This document shows positions 2,176-64,000 of a DNA stretch of 64,000 nucleotides, piece after piece (the first letter of the stretch is position 1; each line of letters begins with the position of its first letter). Location of the stretch: the IMG/VR virus record IMGVR_UViG_2565956713_000001. One strand, written 5' to 3'. The stretch is from a virus. Taxonomy: Duplodnaviria; Heunggongvirae; Uroviricota; Caudoviricetes. The notes below the pieces were generated by a model that was not told where the DNA came from, ran no database searches, and worked only from the letters and a program-made list of their open reading frames with translations. The position numbers and the translations under genes were made by a program.

Positions 2176-3605
2176 TCCTCCTCATACGAAATATTGAAGG
2201 TGGAGTTTCCTGTATCCAGATAAACGAAATCGTAAAAGCCGTTGGACTCATTCCACTCGACAAACTCCAGATAAAAGTCGCGGAAATAGCCCAACGTTTC
2301 GATAAACGCCCAAACGTCTTTTTTCTTAATCAGGATGTACTTTCCGACGCGGTTCGGATCAAAGAAAGTTGAGTCGCGCCCAAATTTTGTTTCCAGTGCC
2401 GACTTCAGCTCATCGGTCACGTTCTCAATGGTCAGGCTTGCCGATATCCGTCCGGTGATGGTTATCTTAAATGGTAGTTTTCTGACCTCTTTATAAGAGA
2501 ATTTCTTGTTCAGTTCATTCGGTACCTTCTTAAAGGCAGTCAGGATCATTTCTTCAAGCTCTGACTGGCTTTTATTTGGATGCCATCCTGAAATAAATAT
2601 CTTATTGATATTCTGAACATTATAAGCACCATCTAATTTCTCTTGCTGGCCTTCGCCCCATGCCTTTACCCAGGACAGCCCCGGGATGTTACGAACCAGA
2701 AAATACGTATAGTCCCCGCCCCATACAACCTGATCATCATAGGCAAGGTAATATTGTGCACGGTTACGTGTGATCTCCGTTGTTTCAGCATCGGTACCTG
2801 CGGTTATAGGTGTCGTTGTCTTAACTGAAATCAAATTAGCTAAATTAGCCGCAGAATCGACAGGCGTCAGGTTTTGGCCAGCAACCAGGGTTATATCGCC
2901 GTTGGTGCACCATACCTTAAGCGTAATTGTCGAGCCTTCTGGCGGTATTTGCCCAATTAGCCCATCGCCGAATCGAACACCCAACTGTTCGGATGGTTTA
3001 TAAAACTCAACGTAGACCTGGCTTTTACTACCAGCTAACCGGAACATTGTGCTGGAAGACCACTGCGTGGTCTTACCATCGGTCGTCACGAATACTTCCA
3101 GCTTATAGCAGACAGCAGTGAGAGCCTTTGATAACACGACTTCCAGAAATTCTTTGGCTGCCGTAACGGTATATGTCACCTCCTGGATTTCCAACTGTGC
3201 CACTTCTACCGTACCGGTGCCGTCAACCAACCTGCATACATCCATAGTCATGTAAGGGTACTGGTCGTCAGATATTAAAGGCGTGTTTTTGGGGATTACC
3301 GCTGGAGCATCTTCACTTGTGGCTGTGATCTCAACCATCCCGGATGACGGTGTTGGCTTGGTACCAACGTAACTATTCGTTTCTGCCGCTGCCAGGATAG
3401 AGGAACGCCGCGTCGCGGTCGATATAAAGCCTTCAGCCAGTGCCGCATCGGCATACTGAAAGCACCTGTAGACAATCTGGGTAATAAACAATGTCAGCAT
3501 CGAGACAAATTGAGAGCCGACAAACTTCGACCAGAATGAATCTTTCTCGACAAGCTCTTCAAACTCTGCACGAATACTGTCTTTAGTCGGTGTTGTTTTA
3601 CTCAT
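2172..3605 (-). CDS. baseplate J-like protein (putative)
   Basis: 477-aa ORF following a gp25-like gene, the usual W-J-I baseplate order; overlapping stop/start codons. Confidence 0.4.
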   Translation of the reverse strand: MSKTTPTKDSIRAEFEELVEKDSFWSKFVGSQFVSMLTLFITQIVYRCFQYADAALAEGFISTATRRSSILAAAETNSYVGTKPTPSSGMVEITATSEDAPAVIPKNTPLISDDQYPYMTMDVCRLVDGTGTVEVAQLEIQEVTYTVTAAKEFLEVVLSKALTAVCYKLEVFVTTDGKTTQWSSSTMFRLAGSKSQVYVEFYKPSEQLGVRFGDGLIGQIPPEGSTITLKVWCTNGDITLVAGQNLTPVDSAANLANLISVKTTTPITAGTDAETTEITRNRAQYYLAYDDQVVWGGDYTYFLVRNIPGLSWVKAWGEGQQEKLDGAYNVQNINKIFISGWHPNKSQSELEEMILTAFKKVPNELNKKFSYKEVRKLPFKITITGRISASLTIENVTDELKSALETKFGRDSTFFDPNRVGKYILIKKKDVWAFIETLGYFRDFYLEFVEWNESNGFYDFVYLDTGNSTFNISYEEE

Positions 3606-3961
3606 AGCACCACGTCCTGTGTGATAGTTATATCCCTGATACGAATGGATATTTTCAACTTATCAAAAGCATCTCCCTCGGCTACTGACAAGCCAGAAAT
3701 CGGTATGTCAGGTAAATCTACCGTCAGTTTTTGCAACAGCATTGCCTCAACCGCAATTTGAACATGCGACAAGTTGGTCGGTTCGTGTTTAAACTGCGGT
3801 AAAACATTGCCCCATGACGGATCTCCGTATACCTCACCCTGATAAGTGTTTAGCCACTCATATAAACGAGCGCCCCAGGCCTCCTCCTGGGACTCATACG
3901 TTTTTACGCCGGATAACTCCAGCGTCAGCAAAGGATCAATTTCGTTATTGTTGGCCATCAA
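3602..3961 (-). CDS. baseplate wedge protein, gp25/GPW-like (putative)
   Basis: 119-aa ORF of typical GPW size, between the tape-measure gene and the J-like gene, translationally coupled. Confidence 0.35.
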   Translation of the reverse strand: MMANNNEIDPLLTLELSGVKTYESQEEAWGARLYEWLNTYQGEVYGDPSWGNVLPQFKHEPTNLSHVQIAVEAMLLQKLTVDLPDIPISGLSVAEGDAFDKLKISIRIRDITITQDVVL

Positions 3962-6900
3962 TCAACTCTCGCGTAGTCATTCATCAACGGATCATCAATT
4001 GACAGTGGTACCGTGCGCATAACGCCCGGCTGAGGCGTGCTGACCTTTACGACAGTTCCCTGGCCTTTCGCCGAGTCTTTGGTGTGCTCTTCAATCCTGG
4101 CAAGCAATGAGGTCATCTGCGCAAACAGCCGCTTCGTTTCACCATCAAGTGAAACGGTATTATCAGCCAACTGCATTGTCGGCTTGGCACCGGAACCGCC
4201 AAGGTCACTAATAACCTGCCCGTCTATCTGCATACGACCGGTTGGTTGCTGCAAATCGTTGGCGGCAGTCGTCACCTGGGACGTGGAGGCTGGTTCAGGC
4301 GCATTATTTTTCCGCATCCCCGGCGAGTTGCGGAGTTTATCGAATAGTCCATCAATCCCCATTTGTGCGCCGAGTTGGTCAAAGTAACTTGAGTTGCTGG
4401 CCACCGGACGCGCCTCTTCAACTGGCATCGGAGTATCAACATACACATTGCCAGCTGCTGTTGCGGTCCCCTTCCCTCGTGCACGTTCTTCGAGCGTTCC
4501 CTGAACGACTTCCCGACGCATACCCCGGCCATTCATGAATTTGTTGACCAGATCGTTAACGCCAACAGCATTGCCGATTTTGTCTACCAGACCGCCTTTC
4601 TCAAACGGGCTATCACCAGGGGTAAACGCCAGACCAGTAGACTGATCGATAACGGCGTTATCAGGCAGTTGTCCCCTCACTCCATATTGCGCCCCACCCT
4701 GTGCTCCTGCCCCAGGTGTATAGATTTCACCACCTAAATAGCGAGCACGATGAGTATTGACCTTGATCGCGTACTCACGGTTTTCCTTCGATAAGTCACC
4801 GGTGCCTTTTTTCCACTTATTAATAGTGCCAAACCCAGCGTTATATGCAGTGATGGCCTCGTTTAAGTCTCCATTGGCTTGCTTCAGATACTTGCTCATG
4901 AGAAGAGCCGCAGCTTCTGCCGATTTCACAGGATCAAACGATTCACCTTCAGCTAAGCCAGTCTCTTCACGAGCAATGCCCGTGAACTGAAACATTCCTA
5001 GAGCACCAGTTTGGGATTTTGCGTATGGATTACCACCAGATTCAGTTGCAGCAATCGCGTAAAGAGTGCCTTCAGGAAGACCATATTTATTCTCTAGTTC
5101 AGCAAAATACGGAGCTAACTTATCGAGATTTGCCTTACCTTCAGCGCCAAGGCTTCCGACTTTTACATCTAAGTTGCCATTATTGTAGGTATCAGCAGCT
5201 TTCTGAATGTCATTCCCAGTGCCGGTGGTATTACGCGACGATGATGACGAGCTATTTTGTCCAATAGCTGAATCAATTTTCCGCACCGCGCTATTGCCCG
5301 TTTCTACGGCATTTGCATTGATAATCTGATTGGCAGTTTCTTTAACTGTTTTATTGCTATCTTTCGCCGTGTCCAGTGCCGCATTTATCACGCGGGTAGC
5401 AATATTAGTCTGTTTAGCATCGGATTCAGTTTTAGAATCAGATGTCTCCTGGTGGCTATTAACCGGAGCTTTTAACTCTGGAGTGATTTCTTTTGCATTA
5501 GCCTCGCCGATCGGATTGGGTATTTTTGATACAATCATTGCCGCAGGGGTATTTTTAACGGCATCAACCGCTGCATCTAATGCTTTACCGGGTAAATTTT
5601 TAACCCCATCCCAAATATTACCAGCCGCCTCTTTAATGTGTTTCCCTGGGTTCTTAATGAAGTCAATTGCACTATCAATTGCATCACTGAAAACCTGTTT
5701 CAGGTTATCGACAGTAAAGAAGTCTTTTATGGCATCCAGCTTTTCAAGCAACTTATTAGATGTATCGCTAAACCATGCTGAAACAGCATCACCAATCTTT
5801 GCTGTGTAATCATCGAACTTGGTAGAAATGGTGTCGCCAAGGTTAGAAATATATGTTTCTAAGTTGGTAACCCCGCTATCAATGGCCTGGGCAATACTTT
5901 CCGTCGAAAATGATTGCAACATATTGCCGATATCCTCAAATCCAAGTGATTTGAGAACATCACCAATAGCACTGCTAATACCAGATACCAGTCCCCCCAA
6001 ATCAAGAACATTGGCTAACGTATAAGCGGCTTTTTGCTGGAATGATGGATCTTGTCCTGATTTAAGCCCAAACGCTCGACGTTGCGCTTCTGTATCATTC
6101 CAACCGGTTACCGCATCATAAATACCTCCAGCCACTGTGCCGACTAGGGGAATTGCGCGTAACGCCCCTTTACCAACTGCCTTTAATCCAAGTTTACCTG
6201 CTGCCCGGGCAGCCAAATCTCCGCCTTCATGAGCGAGAGTCTTCTTGCCACCACCGCGTAGCATTCCTACAAGTTTCTTTGCCCCCAGAGCGCCAAAAGC
6301 GAGTGCTCCAGCTTTTTTCAGCATGCCACGCCCCATTAACAACGACGCGACGCCACCGGCCCCCTTCCCTAACAGGCTAAATAGTTTGGACAGCAAGCCG
6401 CCCTTCTTTTTACCGGTGTTTTTGGCTATCTGATCAAGGGCGCGGAGAATCTTGTCATTGCCCTCTTTAATTTCGCTGGTCTGCTCCTGAAGTTCCTGAA
6501 CCGTCCGTTTTTGGGTGTTAACCTGAACGACATCGGCACTATTTTGCGATTTACGCCTAAAAAAACCTTTTCTACGGCTGTTATCGTCATTGCCACGAAT
6601 CACATCGGCAATAGACTTTCTGGCACCATTAAGCGATCCACCAACTTCTTTTGATATCCCGCCAAGCTCCTTCCCTGCTGCCCACAATGGACCAGCAACG
6701 GCATAACCTAACGCATCGACGGCACGAGTCTCTGAAGGGTTACCTATGCCTTCAGCTACTTTTGACAGTTTTTTTAATAAACCTGATTCAGCATTTAGAC
6801 GCTCATCATCCTCTTTGCGCCTAGCCTTTTCAGCACGTTCAGCACGGGCATCTTCCGCTGCGGCCTTACTCCCTGACTTTCCAATAAAACGACCACGCGC

Positions 6901-10859: not shown

Positions 10860-10876
10860 AATGCTCTAATAAATTT
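10860..10876 (+). promoter_or_regulatory. C1 repressor operator (AATGCTCTAATAAATTT), Op51-like
   Basis: 16/17 match to the asymmetric C1 operator consensus ATTGCTCTAATAAATTT, upstream of the c4-icd-ant module. Confidence 0.7.
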
Positions 10877-11059
10877 GTATTTTTAAGTCGCGAATGCTAT
10901 CTTTTCGCATCATATTGACCTTTTAATCGTTCAGGCTTATAGTTCCGCCGTCGTAGCAAATTCTGCGACCGGGTTTAGCAGCCTGAATGATTGTGCGGAC
11001 AGCCGCAGATATCCGATATTGCGGTATTTTTGTGTCCGTAAAACCGCGTTACGCCCAAA

Positions 11060-11140
11060 TTATGGTGGGGCGTGATGGGGAGGCTTCGGCCTGCTGGTTT
11101 CACAATCGCCAGTCTGCTAACCCCGTCACGTCCTGCCACC
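11060..11140 (+). ncRNA. c4-like antisense repressor RNA (approximate boundaries)
   Basis: ORF-free leader between operator and icd. Short elements (CACAATC, CTGCTAA) are complementary to GTTTAGCAGC / TGATTGTG, which occur twice, the second copy overlapping the icd ribosome-binding site. Confidence 0.3.
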
Positions 11141-11190
11141 TGTTTAGCAGCGGGTAGCAGGTTGTTAAACCTGATTGTGAGGCCGTAACT

Positions 11191-11412
11191 ATGGTTAATG
11201 CCAATCCTTGCGCACGCCCAGAATTCATCTGGCGTTTCTATTCCTGTAAAAAACACCACTATCACTTCGTTATCGCAGCAACTGAAGACGAAGCACGCTC
11301 TCAATTGCCTGATGGCCCCTGCATTTTTACTGCCCGTTTTTCAACTAACTCGCGCAATTCACTTAGTTACTGGAGCCTCCCCTTCTCTGCCGACGTTCAG
11401 GGGGGTTTATGA
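11191..11412 (+). CDS. icd: Icd-like protein (73 aa)
   Basis: 73-aa ORF with GAGG ribosome-binding site; stop overlaps the ant start (ATGA); paralog of the 73-aa ORF at 62488. Confidence 0.6.
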   Translation: MVNANPCARPEFIWRFYSCKKHHYHFVIAATEDEARSQLPDGPCIFTARFSTNSRNSLSYWSLPFSADVQGGL

Positions 11413-12452
11413 AAAAACCTCTCGTCACCCGTAATGACATAGCCGAAGCGATCGCCCTGCATACTGCCTGTATACCGACACGGGAGATCCCCGGCGCAAT
11501 TGCCAACTATTTCATGATAACCAGGCGTTTTTATACCCGAACAGATAAGGCTGTGATCAACAGGCTACTGATAGCCGAGATCAGGGATTATTTGATTGAA
11601 CAAGGACGTCTACGTTACGCAACGGTGGCAGCAGAAATGAGAAAGGAGGCACATAGAATGACCAGTAATAATTTGAATGTTAAAAAACCAGCACCTGTTG
11701 CTTCAGCAACGCCAGCACCAGCCGTGAATGTCATCCCCACCACCGGAGACACAATCGACAGCCTGACACTGTTAAAGATGGTCAATGAAGCGCGTAAGTT
11801 ATGTGGGGAACCAGAGGTTCGGAACAACAAATTCATCGAAAAAATACTCGACGAATTAGAAGGTGAGGACGGTTACACAAAAAGTGCAACCGTGCCGCCA
11901 GGTGGCGGTACGCCTATGGTTGTCATAACCATGACCTACAAACAAGCCCTGCGAGTCGCCGCGCGCGAGTCAAAAGCGGTCCGCCGTTCGCTGATCGACA
12001 AACTGGAAGAATTACAGCAGGCAAACTCCCCTACCCCATCGATCCCCCAAACATTACCAGAAGCCCTACGCCTGGCTGCCGAGTTGGCAGAACAGAAAAT
12101 GCATCTGGAACAACAGCTGGTGGCCGCAGCACCTAAAGTCGATTTTGCCGACCGGGTATCAGTGGCTAAAGGGATCCTGATTGGGAATTTTGCAAAGGTC
12201 GTTGGACTTAAGCAAAACGCCCTTTTCTCATGGTTGCGCCAGAACGGCATTCTCATGGCTTTTGGTGCGCGCAAAAACGTACCGCGCCAGCAGTACATTA
12301 ACGCCGGGTATTTCACGGTGAAAGAAGTGGTGCTGGATGATGAAAATGGCTATCAGATACGGCTGACGCCACAATTAACGGGTAAAGGCCAGCAGTGGTT
12401 AACTCGCAAGCTACTTGATGCTGGTTTGTTAAAACCAGTAGCAATAGGTTAA
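11409..12452 (+). CDS. ant: antirepressor Ant
   Basis: 347 aa; C-terminal KilAC antirepressor domain (DFADRVSVAKGILIGNFAKVVGL...GKGQQWL). Confidence 0.7.
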   Translation: MKKPLVTRNDIAEAIALHTACIPTREIPGAIANYFMITRRFYTRTDKAVINRLLIAEIRDYLIEQGRLRYATVAAEMRKEAHRMTSNNLNVKKPAPVASATPAPAVNVIPTTGDTIDSLTLLKMVNEARKLCGEPEVRNNKFIEKILDELEGEDGYTKSATVPPGGGTPMVVITMTYKQALRVAARESKAVRRSLIDKLEELQQANSPTPSIPQTLPEALRLAAELAEQKMHLEQQLVAAAPKVDFADRVSVAKGILIGNFAKVVGLKQNALFSWLRQNGILMAFGARKNVPRQQYINAGYFTVKEVVLDDENGYQIRLTPQLTGKGQQWLTRKLLDAGLLKPVAIG

Positions 12453-14588: not shown

Positions 14589-14711
14589 TACAATCGTTGC
14601 GGGTGCTTGAGGCTATCTGCTTCAGGCATTACCCGAAAAGCAGATAGAAGAAAGCCCCAGATAACATCACGCGTCCTGCAAGACGCTTAACATTAATCTG
14701 AGGCCATATCT

Positions 14712-14918
14712 ATGCTTAGCATACGTAGATTAGCCTCTTACCGACCAAAAGGTCAAGGAGAAGCAGGCTATGAAGCAGCAAAAAGCGATGTTAATCGCTC
14801 TGATCGTCATCTGTTTAACCGTCATTGTGACGGCACTGGTAACGAGGAAAGACCTCTGCGAGGTACGAATCCGAACCGGCCAGACGGAGGTCACTGTCTT
14901 CACAGCCTACGAATCTGA
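14712..14918 (+). CDS. mok: Mok-like overlapping reading frame of the hok locus
   Basis: 68-aa ORF that overlaps the hok frame out of phase and starts 58 nt upstream, as in hok/mok/sok loci. Confidence 0.4.
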   Translation: MLSIRRLASYRPKGQGEAGYEAAKSDVNRSDRHLFNRHCDGTGNEERPLRGTNPNRPDGGHCLHSLRI

Positions 14919-59470: not shown

Positions 59471-60664
59471 GTGACCTGGGACGATCACAAGAAGAATTTT
59501 GCTCGCCTGGCGCGAGATGGTGGTTACACCATCGCACAATATGCCGCCGAGTTTAATCTCAACCCAAACACCGCACGTCGTTATCTCCGTGCATTCAAAG
59601 AAGACACCGGAACAGCGGACAGCCGTAAGCCAAATAAGCCTGTCAGAAAACCACTAAAAAGCATGATCATTGATCACGCTAATGATCAACGTGCAGGTGA
59701 TCACATTGTGGCTGAAATGGCTGAAAAACAAAGAGTTAATGCTGTTGTCAGTGCCGCAGTCGAGAACGCGAAGCGCCAGAATAAGCGCATAAATGATCGT
59801 TCTGATGATCATGACGTGATCACCCGCGCCCACCGGACCTTACGTGATCGCCTGGAACGCGACACCCTGGATGATGATGGTGAACGCTTTGAATTCGAAG
59901 CTGGCGATTACCTGATAGATAACGTTGAAGCGCGGAAGGCCGCGCGCGCTATGTTGCGTCGGTCCGGGGCCGATGTTCTGGAAACCACTCTTCTGGAAAA
60001 GTCTCTTTCTCATCTCCTTATGCTGGAGAACGCCAGGGATACGTGTATTCGCCTGGTGCAGGAAATGCGCGATCAGCAAAAAGACGATGATGAAGGTACT
60101 CCGCCTGAATACCGTATCGCGAGCATGCTAAACAGCTGTTCCGCGCAGATAAGCAGCCTGATCAACACCATTTACAGCATCCGGAATAACTATCGAAAAG
60201 AAAGCCGGGAGGCGGAAAAGCACGCTTTGTCTATGGGGCAAGCTGGCATTGTTAAGCTGGCATACGAACGAAAGCGTGAAAATAACTGGTCAGTGCTGGA
60301 AGCAGCTGAATTCATCGAGGCGCATGGCGGGAAAGTGCCGCCCCTGATGCTGGAGCAAATCAAAGCCGATCTGCGTGCTCCTAAGACCAATACCGATGAT
60401 GAGGAAAGGCAAACAGCCGTCGGTGGCCCTTCTCTTGAAGATCTGGACAAAGTTGCGCGAGAACGGGCCGCCAACCGCCGCGCCGATGCCGCATTGTGGA
60501 TTGAGCAGCGTAGGGAAGAAATCGCCGATATCGTTGATACAGGCGGTTATGGAGATGTTGATACTGAAGGTGTATCAAACGACCCATGGCTGGAACAAGA
60601 CCTGGACGAAGACGAGGAGGAAGACGAAGAAGTTACCCGCAAGCTATACGGGGATGATGATTAA
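59471..60664 (+). CDS. pacA: terminase small (pac-recognition) subunit PacA
   Basis: 397 aa, GTG start; contains the pac hexamer clusters in its 5' region; acidic C-terminus; stop overlaps the pacB start. Confidence 0.85.
59664..59822. promoter_or_regulatory. pac: pac packaging site (TGATCA hexamer clusters)
   Basis: Four TGATCA at 59664, 59671, 59683, 59698 and three TGATC(A/G) at 59794, 59806, 59817, the 4+3 arrangement of the P1 pac site; each contains a Dam GATC. Confidence 0.85.
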
Positions 60665-62148
60665 TGGCCAGAAGTTGCGTAACGGATCCACGTTGGCGCG
60701 AGCTGGTGGCGCTATATCGTTATGACTGGATTGCGGCCGCTGATGTTTTGTTCGGCAAAACACCTACCTGGCAGCAGGATCTGATTATTGAGTCTGTGCA
60801 GGAACAGGGTAGCAAGACATCTGTTTCGTCTGGTCACGGTACCGGGAAATCAGACATGACTTCTATCATGATCATGTTGTTCATAATCATGTATCCAGGT
60901 GCCCGTGCCATTATCGTTGCGAACAAAATTCAGCAGGTAATGACCGGTATATTCAAGTACATCAAGATAAACTGGGCTACTGCCACCAGCCGTTTCCCAT
61001 GGCTTGCTGATTATTTTGTTCTGACAGAAACCGCTTTCTATGAGGTTACTGGTAAAGGTGTATGGACTGTAGTACCGAAGGGCTTTCGTCTGGGAAGTGA
61101 AGAAGCTCTCGCCGGTGAACACGCAGATCATCTTCTGTATATTATCGATGAAGCCTCCGGTGTCAGTGATAGAGCTTTCGGTATCATCACCGGTGCTCTT
61201 ACCGGACAGGATAACCGCATCTTATTACTGTCACAGCCTACACGCCCAAGCGGCTATTTCTACGATACTCACCATAAACTGGCCAAGCGTCCTGGTAACC
61301 CTGATGGCGTTTATACGGCGATCACGCTTAACAGTGAGGAATCACCGCTGGTAACGCCAGCATTTATCAAAATGAAGCTGGCGGAGTACGGCGGGCGTGA
61401 TAACCCTATGTACATGATTAAGGTACGCGGACTATTCCCTAAATCACAGGATGGCTTCCTTCTTGGACGTGATGAGGTTGAACGTGCGACGCGGCGGAAA
61501 GTCAAGATTGCCAAAGGATGGGGCTGGCTTGCATGTGTGGACGTTGCTGGTGGTACGGGACGGGATAAGTCCGTTATCAATATCATGATGGTGTCCGGCC
61601 AGAGAAATAAACGCCGTGTAATCAACTATCGAATGCTGGAATACACAGACGTTACAGAAACGCAGCTTGCCGCCAAAATTTTCGCAGAATGTAATCCTGA
61701 GCGATTCCCAAATATCACCATAGCGATAGACGGCGATGGGCTGGGTAAAGCAACGGCGGATCTGATGTACGAGTATTATGGTATTACCGTACAGCGTATA
61801 CGCTGGGGTAAAAAGATGCATAGCCGTGAAGATAAGAGCCTGTACTTTGATAAACGTGCTTATGCCAACGTTCAAGCCGCAGAGGCCGTAAAATCTGGTC
61901 GTATGAGACTGGATAAGGGTAATGAAACTATTGAGGAAGCGTCGAAAATCCCTGTAGGGATTAACTCCGCAGGTCAATGGAAGGTGATGAGTAAGGAGGA
62001 TATGAAGAAAAAACTCAACCTGCATTCACCAGACCATTGGGATACATATTGTTTCGCTATGCTGGCGGATTATGTTCCCCAGGATGAAGTGCTTAGCGTC
62101 GAAGACGAAGCGCAGGTTGATGAAGCTCTGGCATGGCTTAATGAGTAA
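60664..62148 (+). CDS. pacB: terminase large subunit PacB
   Basis: 494 aa; Walker A-like SGHGTGKS and Walker [11 protein letters not shown]; follows pacA. Confidence 0.85.
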
Positions 62149-62151
62149 AAT

Positions 62152-62168
62152 CTTGCTCTAATAAATTG
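62152..62168 (+). promoter_or_regulatory. C1 repressor operator (CTTGCTCTAATAAATTG)
   Basis: 15/17 consensus match 4 bp after the pacB stop, heading the second immI-like module. Confidence 0.65.
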
Positions 62169-62487
62169 TGTTTTTTGACTGCCGATGTTACATTGAACCT
62201 GACCTCTTGCGCCTTGAGGCATTTTCGGTTTATGCTTATCAGGCACCTCATTAAAACGGGTGCCGGGATTGGCCTCCCGCTTAAGTCTAAGGCGATACAG
62301 ACGCCGCTCGCGTCTTTTTTTTGTATCGGCGTACACGCACACCTCTACAATGGTGGGCTGTATGGGGCTACCTTCGGGTAGGCTGGTTACCTTGGACGCC
62401 AGTAAGGCCAACTCCGTACAGTCCACCGCCAGCAAGATTGGTCTCTTCTGCGGTGGTTACATACCAACGTCTAAGGAGGCTGCCAAT

Positions 62488-62709
62488 ATGGCTACTATCC
62501 CTACCCCAACTCATCCTGTATTTATCTGGCGCTTTTACTCCTGCCAAAAACGTCACTATCACTTCGTTATTGCACCGACAGAAGATGAGGCCCGCTCTCA
62601 GCTTCCTGACGCCCCATGTATTTTCTCTGCCCGTTTTTCCACTGATTCACGCAATTCTCTCAGTTACTGGTGCCTCCCTGTTAACGCTTCTGCTCAGGAG
62701 GGACTATGA
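62488..62709 (+). CDS. Icd-like protein, second copy (73 aa)
   Basis: Internal Met with AAGGAGG ribosome-binding site inside ORF 62260..62709; ~70% identical to the 11191 Icd-like protein; stop overlaps the ant-like start. Confidence 0.55.
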   Translation: MATIPTPTHPVFIWRFYSCQKRHYHFVIAPTEDEARSQLPDAPCIFSARFSTDSRNSLSYWCLPVNASAQEGL

Positions 62710-63821
62710 GAACATCGTTAGTTACCCGTGAAGAGATGATCGAGGCAATTGAACAGCACACTGCCTGTATCAGTACCAGGGATATACCAGGCGTTATTGC
62801 CAACTACTTCATGATCACCAAACAACTTTACCGGAGAAAGGACAAGAACGCTGTTCACCGTATCCTGCTGTCTGATATCCGTGAATACCTGCTCGAACAG
62901 GGGCATCTGAATTACGCAACCGTCGCAGCCGAAACACGCAAGGAGGCACACAGAATGAAAGCTACTAACGTTAAATCTGAAAAAATTAATACACCTTTAG
63001 TTCAGGAATCAGAACTGGTGGTTGTTCAAAGTCAGCCGGATGAAATTCCCGTTCTAGAGTGGCAGGGAGTGCGTGTAGTGACAACTAAGATCCTTGCTAA
63101 GGGGTATGGGACAGATGCGGATAACATCAAGAAGAACTTTTCCCGTAATGCTGAACGTTTTTGTGAAGGTAAGCATTTCTATAAAGTTATTGGAGATGAT
63201 TTGAACAATTTGCGGGTGACTTTAAGTAACTCACAAAATCCTATCTCTCCTAAAGCCCGCTCACTCATCCTCTGGACGGAACGCGGCGCAGCCCGCCACG
63301 CTAAAATGCTCGAAACCGATCAGGCATGGGCATTCTTTGAAAAACTGGAAGACAGCTACTTCCGGCAAAAAGAACAGCAACCGGTTGCAATCCCCCAGAC
63401 GCTTCCAGAAGCTCTGCGCCTGGCTGCCGAACTGGCTGAACAAAAGCAGCTTCTGGAACAGAAAGCCCACCAGCTAAATCAGCAGCTGGTGGCCGCCGCT
63501 CCTAAAGTCGATTTTGCCGACCGGGTATCAGTAGCTAAAGGGATCCTGATTGGGAATTTTGCAAAGGTCGTTGGACTTAAACAAAATGCGCTGTTTGCCT
63601 GGTTACGGGAGAACGGCATCCTGATAGCGTCCGGTGGACGTAAAAATGTGCCGTTCCAGCAGTACATCAACGCGGGGTATTTCACGGTGAAAGAAGTGGT
63701 GCTGGATGATGAAGATGGCTACCAGATACGGTTGACGCCTCAATTAACGGGTAAAGGCCAGCAGTGGTTGACGCGTAAACTGCTCGATGCTGGCTTGTTA
63801 AAACCGGTGGCGGCTGAATAA
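62706..63821 (+). CDS. antirepressor Ant-like protein, second copy
   Basis: 371 aa; N-terminal ~90 aa and C-terminal KilAC domain homologous to the 11409 Ant; central domain differs. Confidence 0.65.
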   Translation: MRTSLVTREEMIEAIEQHTACISTRDIPGVIANYFMITKQLYRRKDKNAVHRILLSDIREYLLEQGHLNYATVAAETRKEAHRMKATNVKSEKINTPLVQESELVVVQSQPDEIPVLEWQGVRVVTTKILAKGYGTDADNIKKNFSRNAERFCEGKHFYKVIGDDLNNLRVTLSNSQNPISPKARSLILWTERGAARHAKMLETDQAWAFFEKLEDSYFRQKEQQPVAIPQTLPEALRLAAELAEQKQLLEQKAHQLNQQLVAAAPKVDFADRVSVAKGILIGNFAKVVGLKQNALFAWLRENGILIASGGRKNVPFQQYINAGYFTVKEVVLDDEDGYQIRLTPQLTGKGQQWLTRKLLDAGLLKPVAAE

Positions 63822-63829
63822 TGGAAGAA

Positions 63830-63852
63830 TGCCCGGTTGATGCCGGGCATAA
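63830..63852. terminator. bidirectional intrinsic terminator
   Basis: Hairpin TGCCCGG-ttgatg-CCGGGCA with T-rich flanks on both strands, between the ant-like gene and convergent c1. Confidence 0.55.
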
Positions 63853-63853
63853 T

Positions 63854-64000
63854 TTATTGCGCGCTTTCGGGGTTGTCGTTTACTGGCTGCCCCTTCTTGG
63901 TTTTACGGCTGCGCGTAACTGATGCGGCTGACTTAACCTTTTTCTCTTCGCGAGTGATGGCAATTTGTTTTTTTACATTTTCAATATCTGCCAGGCGATA
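63854..64000 (-). CDS. c1: C1 repressor, C-terminal 48 codons (gene continues beyond window end)
   Basis: Minus-strand frame open to the window edge, ending ...YRLADIENVKKQIAITREEKKVKSAASVTRSRKTKKGQPVNDNPESAQ*; matches my recollection of the P1 C1 C-terminus and fits the C1 operators across the window. Confidence 0.6.
   Translation of the reverse strand, partial: YRLADIENVKKQIAITREEKKVKSAASVTRSRKTKKGQPVNDNPESAQ

Follow-up and report, generated by a model that had tools for sequence, protein, structure and literature searches.

A Probable Second immI Operon of the C4/IsrK Class between pacB and c1 of a P1-like Phage-Plasmid

Introduction

The immunity of phage P1 is usually taught as a system of three parts: immC, immI and immT. 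The question considered here is raised by a segment of 1705 bp (positions 62149–63853, plus strand) located between pacB and c1 near the end of a 64,000-nucleotide stretch of viral DNA, IMG/VR record IMGVR_UViG_2565956713_000001. This whole stretch, hereafter the window, represents a P1-like phage-plasmid and possesses a canonical immI at another site. Does the segment contain a second operon of the immI type, is it likely to be functional, and would it be controlled separately from the first one? The first-pass annotation, which was made from the letters of the window alone, had proposed an operator, a c4-like leader, an icd paralog and an ant-like gene in this place. Based on homology searches, RNA family models and covariation, we estimate with a probability of about 75% that the segment holds an entire, probably functional second immI operon of the C4/IsrK class, wired into the C1 regulon of P1. 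The mechanism of P1 immI, with which the segment is compared below, has been summarized in PMC8198154.

Insertion between pacB and c1

The left flank of the segment is pacB, encoding a terminase subunit (60664–62148, plus strand; an open reading frame (ORF) of 494 amino acids), which is collinear with pacB of P1 and RCS47. The right flank is the 3′ end of c1 (63854–64000, minus strand; stop codon at 63854–63856), which is collinear with c1 of P1 and is cut by the end of the window. In the P1 reference, for which the GenBank annotation was used, c1 follows pacB directly, as the first-pass annotation had stated, and the gap is 24 bp. According to the comparison of junctions, the segment stands in place of this spacer. 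The proposed insertion relative to P1 and P7 was borne out by alignment: among phage genomes, BLAST matches of P1, P7, SJ46 and phiW39 were limited to the two flanks, whereas those of RCS47, JL22 and vB_EcoM-673R5 spanned the entire segment. The first-pass annotation had expected reference P1-family genomes to be without the module; this is true of P1 and P7 and untrue of RCS47 (a RefSeq exemplar), JL22, vB_EcoM-673R5 and 281 plasmid records.

In a search of plasmid records, the 3′ end of pacB was found in 593 and at least 80% of the insertion in 281. A leader at least 99% identical to that of the segment was present in 132 records from complete Escherichia coli genomes, and the matches listed were plasmids of ~95–210 kb. 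The window region itself was 99.9% identical to plasmid pD72-mcr1. The insertions of RCS47, JL22, pTZ20_1P and other P1-like phage-plasmids share the site and the right junction with that of the window, and their icd and ant genes are 91–99% identical. No difference at the right junction was seen among the five P1-like loci examined, which suggests a single ancestral insertion event. Judged by sequence, the parts of the module belong to known families and the insertion is not unique to the window. It was mentioned by Venturini et al. in 2019 (PMC6906374) as "two short hypothetical orfs and ant", without further analysis; a description of it as a complete C1-controlled C4/IsrK module was not found in the literature searched.

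Comparison with the Canonical immI

The canonical immI of the window is of the P7 type (10860–12452, plus strand) and shares 99.1% identity with that of P7 and 95.6% with that of P1. It consists of Op51 (10860–10876), the a1/b1 leader (10937–11031), a C4 RNA (11058–11143), icd (11191–11412) and ant (11409–12452), and it occupies its usual place beside kilA-repL, as had been annotated. Both of its RNA elements were called by Rfam above the gathering scores (c4-a1b1 at 10937–10989 and C4 at 11058–11143).

The order of parts in the segment is the same as in P1/P7 immI, so the proposed arrangement of operator, c4-like leader, icd and ant proved to be real, with a C4-family RNA in both modules. The second module differs from P1/P7 immI in that it lies between pacB and c1 and not beside sim and kilA-repL, and in that it is additional to a P7-type immI. 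Its a and b recognition sequences, the type of its leader and the centre of its Ant-like protein are also different, as described below.

C1 Operator and Putative Promoters

The segment begins with a C1 operator, CTTGCTCTAATAAATTG (62152–62168, plus strand), which agrees with the 17-bp C1 consensus at 15 of 17 positions and occupies the position of Oc4/Op51 of P1. The two-mismatch operator is kept in the RCS47-type, JL22 and ETEC1706 variants. When up to three mismatches were allowed, the consensus matched the window 11 times, against 0.26 matches expected by chance.

Two putative promoters follow on the plus strand. The P51a-like promoter (62166–62194) overlaps the operator and includes a −35 element TTGTGT (62166–62171) and an extended −10 element TGTTACATT (62186–62194); its −10 hexamer lies 37 bp from the operator start, compared with 38 bp for P2c4 (P51a) of P1. 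The P51b-like promoter (62207–62236) has −35 TTGCGC (62207–62212) and −10 TATGCT (62231–62236), at offsets of 55 and 79 bp relative to the start of the operator, compared with 55 and 78 bp for P1c4 (P51b) of P1. The isrK match described below begins at 62243, exactly where transcription from this promoter is predicted to start. The operator and both promoters are kept among variants with differing a/b sequences. Thus, a C1 operator followed by predicted tandem promoters precedes the C4 RNA, as in P1/P7 immI, with the operator–promoter spacing preserved within 1 bp.

Other matches to the C1 operator, with 0–3 mismatches, were located at 10860, 12531, 27486, 30762/30773, 41196, 44821/44870, 46963 and 58845. 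The pair 30762/30773 overlaps on opposite strands and has the look of a bivalent operator.

IsrK-Type Leader and C4 RNA

The leader extends from 62169 to 62487. Its length (~319 bp) is close to the ~320 bp first noted, but it is not free of ORFs: mechanical ORFs are present, including one of 149 amino acids that starts with GTG in the frame of icd. Two structured RNAs were recognized in it. The first is an IsrK-family leader RNA with a1, b1 and an intrinsic terminator (62243–62323, plus strand), identified by Rfam, a terminator scan, folding and covariation. The isrK model (RF01394) was matched from position 1 to 77 of 77 at 62243–62320 with 60.8 bits (cutoff 50), and the terminator scan found a stem at 62299–62315 followed by a T/U run. 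The second is a C4-family antisense RNA (62346–62433, plus strand), identified by Rfam, its minimum free energy (MFE) fold and stem covariation; the C4 model (RF01695) was matched over its full length, 1–87 of 87, with 75.9 bits (cutoff 45).

The first-pass annotation had called the leaders of the two modules unrelated. This did not hold up: one homologous scaffold is common to both. The canonical leader, which scored 55.5 bits with the c4-a1b1 model, also matched the isrK model over its full length (10950–11031), with 43.7 bits at E = 2e-8, a score under the cutoff of 50 bits. This match begins at 10950, the expected P51b start, and a terminator-like hairpin with a U run is situated after b1. 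Reciprocally, the second leader matched c4-a1b1 (RF03163) at 62230–62283 with 20.5 bits and E = 0.005, below the cutoff of 46.7. The reciprocal matches, together with the equal spacing (within 1 bp), indicate that both leaders are versions of one homologous scaffold. On this comparison, the a1/b1 sites of the second leader are present, in an isrK-type version of the scaffold, and the isrK and c4-a1b1 families of Rfam appear to model one homologous element. The isrK family is placed outside the C4 clan of Rfam, IsrK and c4 are entered separately in a 2025 review, and the literature searched contained neither a paper linking IsrK with c4 nor the equivalence of IsrK and the a1/b1 leader.

An ATG at 62350, inside the C4 RNA, opens a stop-free frame into icd, 46 codons upstream of it, and its position equals that of the first orf45 AUG of the prophage Gifsy-1. 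The C4 region is annotated by the NCBI pipeline as an "ash family protein" (62350–62487; L007:1718–1837; RefSeq E. coli plasmids). A structured RNA has probably been mistaken for a gene here, and the label probably needs correction.

Recognition Sequences and Predicted Specificity

In the MFE fold of the C4 RNA, two elements are unpaired: b′, the loop of hairpin 2 (CCUUGGACG, 62390–62398), and a′, the single-stranded junction 3′ of this loop (AGGCCAA, 62405–62411). Each of them is complementary to two sites. In the leader RNA, a1 (UUGGCCU, 62269–62275) lies in a hairpin loop and is complementary to a′, and b1 (GUCUAAGG, 62285–62292) is complementary to b′. Downstream of the C4 RNA on the plus strand, the predicted target a2 (UUGGUCU, 62438–62444) forms seven pairs with a′, one of them G–U, and the predicted target b2 (CGUCUAAGG, 62468–62476) forms nine contiguous pairs with b′, also with one G–U. 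The b2 site lies on the Shine–Dalgarno sequence of icd, AAGGAGG (62473–62479). Hence, unpaired a′ and b′ are complementary to a target pair at the downstream ribosome-binding site, and, as in P1/P7 immI, to two target pairs in total, with b2 on the icd ribosome-binding site.

Part of this pairing had been anticipated. The repeat GTCTAAGG and its possible partner CCTTGGAC are present, although at 62285 and 62469 (not 62470) and at 62390 (not 62392), and they correspond to the b1/b2/b′ interaction in the hairpin-2 loop of C4, which covaries across relatives. The set was incomplete, with the a1/a′/a2 pairing and the IsrK-type terminator missed.

The recognition sequences of the two modules are unrelated. 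In the canonical module a is UUUAGCAG and b is GAUUGUG, whereas in the second one a is UUGGCCU/UUGGUCU and b is GUCUAAGG. When contiguous complementarity was restricted to the unpaired loop and junction, pairing with own targets amounted to 6.5–10.5 weighted contiguous pairs, compared with 3–5 between the two modules. Because the sequences are unrelated, each C4 RNA is expected to be specific to its own ant gene; the two modules are thus predicted not to cross-react, and each C4 RNA should guard its own ant only. The different specificities that had been suspected for the two leaders are therefore retained as a prediction, with cross-pairing limited to 3–5 contiguous pairs. A query of loop plus stem nucleotides gave spurious pairings and was dropped.

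Covariation and Diversity of the a and b Elements

In an alignment of the window leader with five relatives (RCS47, JL22, an enterotoxigenic E. coli (ETEC) plasmid, phage D6 and a Shiga toxin (Stx) phage), b′, b1 and b2 varied jointly, and so did a′, a1 and a2, while the a and b elements reassorted independently. For example, the b′ form of the window is CCUUGGAC and that of the RCS47 type is CCUUUGAC. The leaders of RCS47 and JL22 are 81–83% identical to that of the window and differ from it in a/b, so different specificities are predicted for them.

Pairs were counted by columns in an alignment of 35 leader sequences. The a1:a′ helix was paired in 99.6% of the cells and the b1:b′ helix in 92.9%; both partners had changed in 5 of 7 and in 7 of 8 pairs, respectively. 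The C4 stems were paired in 99.6–100% of the cells (16 of 21 pairs changed on both sides). For C4 hairpin 2 the value was 92.4%, with 2 of 6 pairs changed on both sides and the loop-closing pair unpaired in 16 of the 35 sequences. Slid controls reached 34–44%, and the observed covariation score was attained by none of 500 shuffles.

An 18-mer scan of viral contigs yielded 81 unique leaders. Among them were 28 types of b′ and 14 of a′, which occurred in 35 combinations. At least seven contiguous pairs were formed with own targets in 97–100% of the types and with the targets of other leaders in 1–5%. It is this alignment-free test that supports the a2/b2 sites. The extent of reassorting a/b variation was not found described in the literature searched.

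The same scaffold of isrK and C4 was found in Stx-converting lambdoid phages, phage D6 and P4-like elements, where it is ~79–89% identical to that of the window and both Rfam families are called. Unlike the leader of the window, these leaders lack a C1 operator and have differing b′ sequences, and some share a′, AAGGCCAA. The genes downstream of them are Rha-like regulators in Stx phages and, in a P4-like element, an Icd-like gene, small hypothetical ORFs and a primase gene. The occurrence of the a′ of the window with other b′ sequences in P4-like elements suggests recombination by which a and b are reshuffled among mobile elements that differ greatly from one another.

Two E. coli chromosomal loci (L130 and L131) are P4-like, with a primase or DUF5906 gene and an isrK/C4 leader; they share a′ AAGGCCAA and have a different b′. 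Phage D6 (L006, NC_050154) contains two icd-containing modules, at 2544–3965 and 20806–21177. One of them is of the P1 type. The second, an icd-ant module of the isrK/C4 type, is located elsewhere than the insertion of the window, being flanked by a ref-like gene and pmgF, and its a/b equal those of JL22. A scan of genome contigs with the 18-mer AAAACGGGTGCCGGGATT returned 33 loci, more than half of them from unrelated taxa, with no Gifsy-1 locus among them. The matches included contigs assigned to Ruminococcus, Rhodobacteraceae and Hymenobacter; as ~17 chance matches are expected from the size of the collection, most matches in unrelated taxa are probably due to chance, or possibly to contamination, and the scan yielded no clear taxonomic picture.

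The icd and ant Genes

The icd-like gene (62488–62709, plus strand) encodes 73 amino acids and was identified by the NCBIfam model phage_ICD_like. Its product is 80% identical to the canonical Icd over 64 amino acids; Pfam has no model matching either Icd. The stop codon of icd overlaps the start of the ant-like gene in the sequence ATGA (62706–62709), the same coupling as in P1/P7 immI. The ant-like gene (62706–63821, plus strand) encodes an antirepressor of 371 amino acids, which matched phrog_63 "anti-repressor Ant" over its full length and contains an ANT domain (PF03374, KilAC), scoring 109.5 bits against a cutoff of 25.3, and an ORF6N domain, scoring 68 bits against a cutoff of 27.8. An in-frame ATG of the Ant2 type is found at 62955 behind AAGGAGG (62940–62946), at +249 nt, which is the ant1/ant2 offset of P1. 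Hence, both the icd-ant overlap and the nested ant1/ant2 starts of immI are present. Between ant and the convergent c1, the terminator scan found a hairpin with a 9-bp stem (63829–63850, no strand assigned), which is possibly a two-way terminator. The 73-amino-acid paralog, the overlapping start, the terminator-like hairpin and the convergent c1 had all been noted at the first pass, and all are present.

It could be asked whether the module is only an inert, decaying passenger from a lambdoid or P4-like element, having no current function. P1 and P7 work without it, and the ant product annotated in vB_EcoM-673R5 is shorter. The state of the genes in the window speaks differently: both ORFs are intact, and the ratios of nonsynonymous to synonymous substitution rates (dN/dS) between the window and RCS47, JL22 and the ETEC plasmid were 0.05–0.10 for icd and 0.06–0.09 for ant, values indicative of purifying selection on both. 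Moreover, at least 80% of the module is retained in 281 plasmid records, the operator and promoters are conserved, and C4 remains complementary to both target pairs even as the recognition sequences diversify. An inert passenger is, in our opinion, very improbable.

What the Ant-like protein acts on is a separate matter. It is 55% identical to the canonical Ant: the N-terminal 84 amino acids align, the C-terminal ~145 are almost identical, and the centre differs. Based on this similarity, its target is expected to be C1. Alternatively, regulation could proceed as proposed here, with the protein directed at the repressors of other prophages or having some other role, so that the module would serve cross-talk between elements and not P1 immunity. 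ORF6N in the centre is common in lambdoid antirepressors and absent from the canonical Ant; leaders of this type precede Rha-like regulators in Stx phages and occur in P4-like chromosomal elements; and trans-acting antirepressors are known in Gifsy prophages (PMC3121763). This alternative has to be set against the Ant1-specific N-terminus and the almost identical C-terminus shared with the canonical Ant, the preserved nested Ant1/Ant2 starts, the C1 operator gained by the operon and its position beside c1. We regard it as unlikely, and C1 as the expected target.

The annotation of vB_EcoM-673R5 (L003) gives the ant-like gene at 2304–3077 as a shorter "Roi" product of 774 nt and divides c1 (3480–4303) into three small ORFs. 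These changes may be frameshifts or sequencing errors.

Comparison with isrK–orf45–anrP of Gifsy-1

Among the closest systems with experimental data is that of Gifsy-1 in Salmonella (PMC4825925). There, the isrK terminator is partly read through, and IsrK acting in trans stimulates the translation of the antirepressor encoded downstream. G28 and G31 of IsrK pair with the long transcript at C162 and C159; compensatory mutations were reported for the pairing of the leader with "orf45". A short RNA, STnc1160, is processed from the orf45 region. The second module resembles this system in having an isrK leader with a terminator of the partly read-through kind, followed by a C4-like region holding the position of the orf45 AUG, and in the predicted dependence of the downstream antirepressor on translational coupling; its leader is also predicted to pair with the a′ region, as in Gifsy-1. 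It differs from Gifsy-1 by the icd gene of 73 amino acids between C4 and the antirepressor, by the C1 operator of P1 and by its plasmid-prophage host, and it is known from sequence alone. Since the a1 loop has its first G at consensus position 28 of the Rfam isrK model, the pairing tested in Gifsy-1 most likely corresponds to a1:a′; this mapping was made through the numbering of the Rfam model and not through the Gifsy-1 sequence.

The Gifsy-1 data open another way of reading the leader, as an IsrK-type positive switch only. The mRNA would be closed in cis by pairing of a1/b1 with a′/b′, the short leader would open it in trans, and the C4-like region would be a structure of the mRNA from which no repressor is processed. 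The isrK match of 60.8 bits with its terminator is consistent with this, as are the precedent of partial read-through, IsrK-dependent activation and compensatory mutations (PMC4825925), the frame of ATG 62350, which is continuous with icd from the position of the orf45 start, and the covariation of a1:a′ and b1:b′, which at least equals that of the downstream pairs. A switch made of a1 and b1 does not need a2 and b2, however, and these track a′ and b′ in 97–100% of the leader types, with b2 on the Shine–Dalgarno sequence. In addition, the full C4 model is matched, and this model was built around the trans-acting repressor of P1/P7, while STnc1160 shows that a short RNA can arise from the orf45 region (PMC4825925). 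We consider a positive switch alone to be a serious but rather unlikely explanation. The switch and the C4 model are also compatible and may describe one system.

Proposed Mechanism of the Second immI Operon

Based on the above, we suggest the following scheme for the second immI operon, all steps of which are drawn from homology and covariation. In the lysogen, C1 bound at 62152–62168 would close the upstream promoter, and the second promoter, ~55–79 bp downstream, would initiate near 62243. Many transcripts would be halted by the terminator (62299–62323), giving an IsrK-type RNA of ~80 nt that displays a1 and b1. The read-through transcripts would contain the C4 RNA, which, by the precedent of P1, could be excised from the precursor. 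Pairing of b′ and a′ of C4 with b2 and a2 would then block translation of icd, because b2 covers its ribosome-binding site, and ant would also remain unmade because the ATGA overlap couples it to icd. The leader RNA may compete for C4, since its a/b sequences equal those of the mRNA target, in a manner similar to the activating role of IsrK in Gifsy-1. Upon failure of repression, Icd and Ant1/Ant2-like proteins would be produced, and Ant is expected to inactivate C1. A superinfecting relative would be restrained only if it carried a matching a/b combination.

Several points weigh against this scheme. A consensus promoter scan called neither of the leader promoters; since the scanner missed both, we infer them from their positional equivalence to the annotated promoters of P1. 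Full-length C4–target duplex energies, in which the RNAs' own folding was ignored, failed to separate own from foreign targets, and the two are told apart only by the complementarity of loop and junction. The column counts for a2/b2 gave 77.6% paired cells, with one sequence class misregistered by MAFFT. The centre of the Ant-like protein, ORF6N, is unlike that of the canonical Ant, which makes C1 less certain as its target. Finally, the scaffold in Gifsy-1 was explained as a structural switch of the mRNA activated by IsrK, without a processed C4 repressor acting in trans (PMC4825925).

Implications for P1-like Phage-Plasmids

A second immI-type module is found beside c1 in about half of the sequenced P1-like phage-plasmids, and many of the carrier plasmids hold resistance genes, e.g., mcr-1, blaSHV-2 and blaCTX-M. 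Provided that both modules are active, the stability and induction of the prophage and its compatibility in superinfection would hinge on two independent small-RNA addresses, which, if true, would bear on the coexistence, mutual exclusion and spread of P1-like plasmids. The comparative data also connect c4 of P1, with its a1/b1 sites, to IsrK of Salmonella. We tentatively propose, at somewhat below even odds, a wider picture, in which P1-like phage-plasmids commonly carry two non-cross-reacting antisense locks on antirepressors. In this picture a/b would be a hypervariable, reassorting address, shared with Stx phages and P4-like elements, which decides which elements induce one another, and Salmonella IsrK would be the a1/b1 leader of a C4 system and a competitor for C4.

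Other Features of the Window

A sok antitoxin RNA (14601–14775; Rfam, 112 bits) points to an addiction locus of the hok/sok type just downstream of repL. Three tRNA genes were also found, at 31447–31519, 31525–31597 and 33601–33673 (Rfam tRNA, 65–75 bits).

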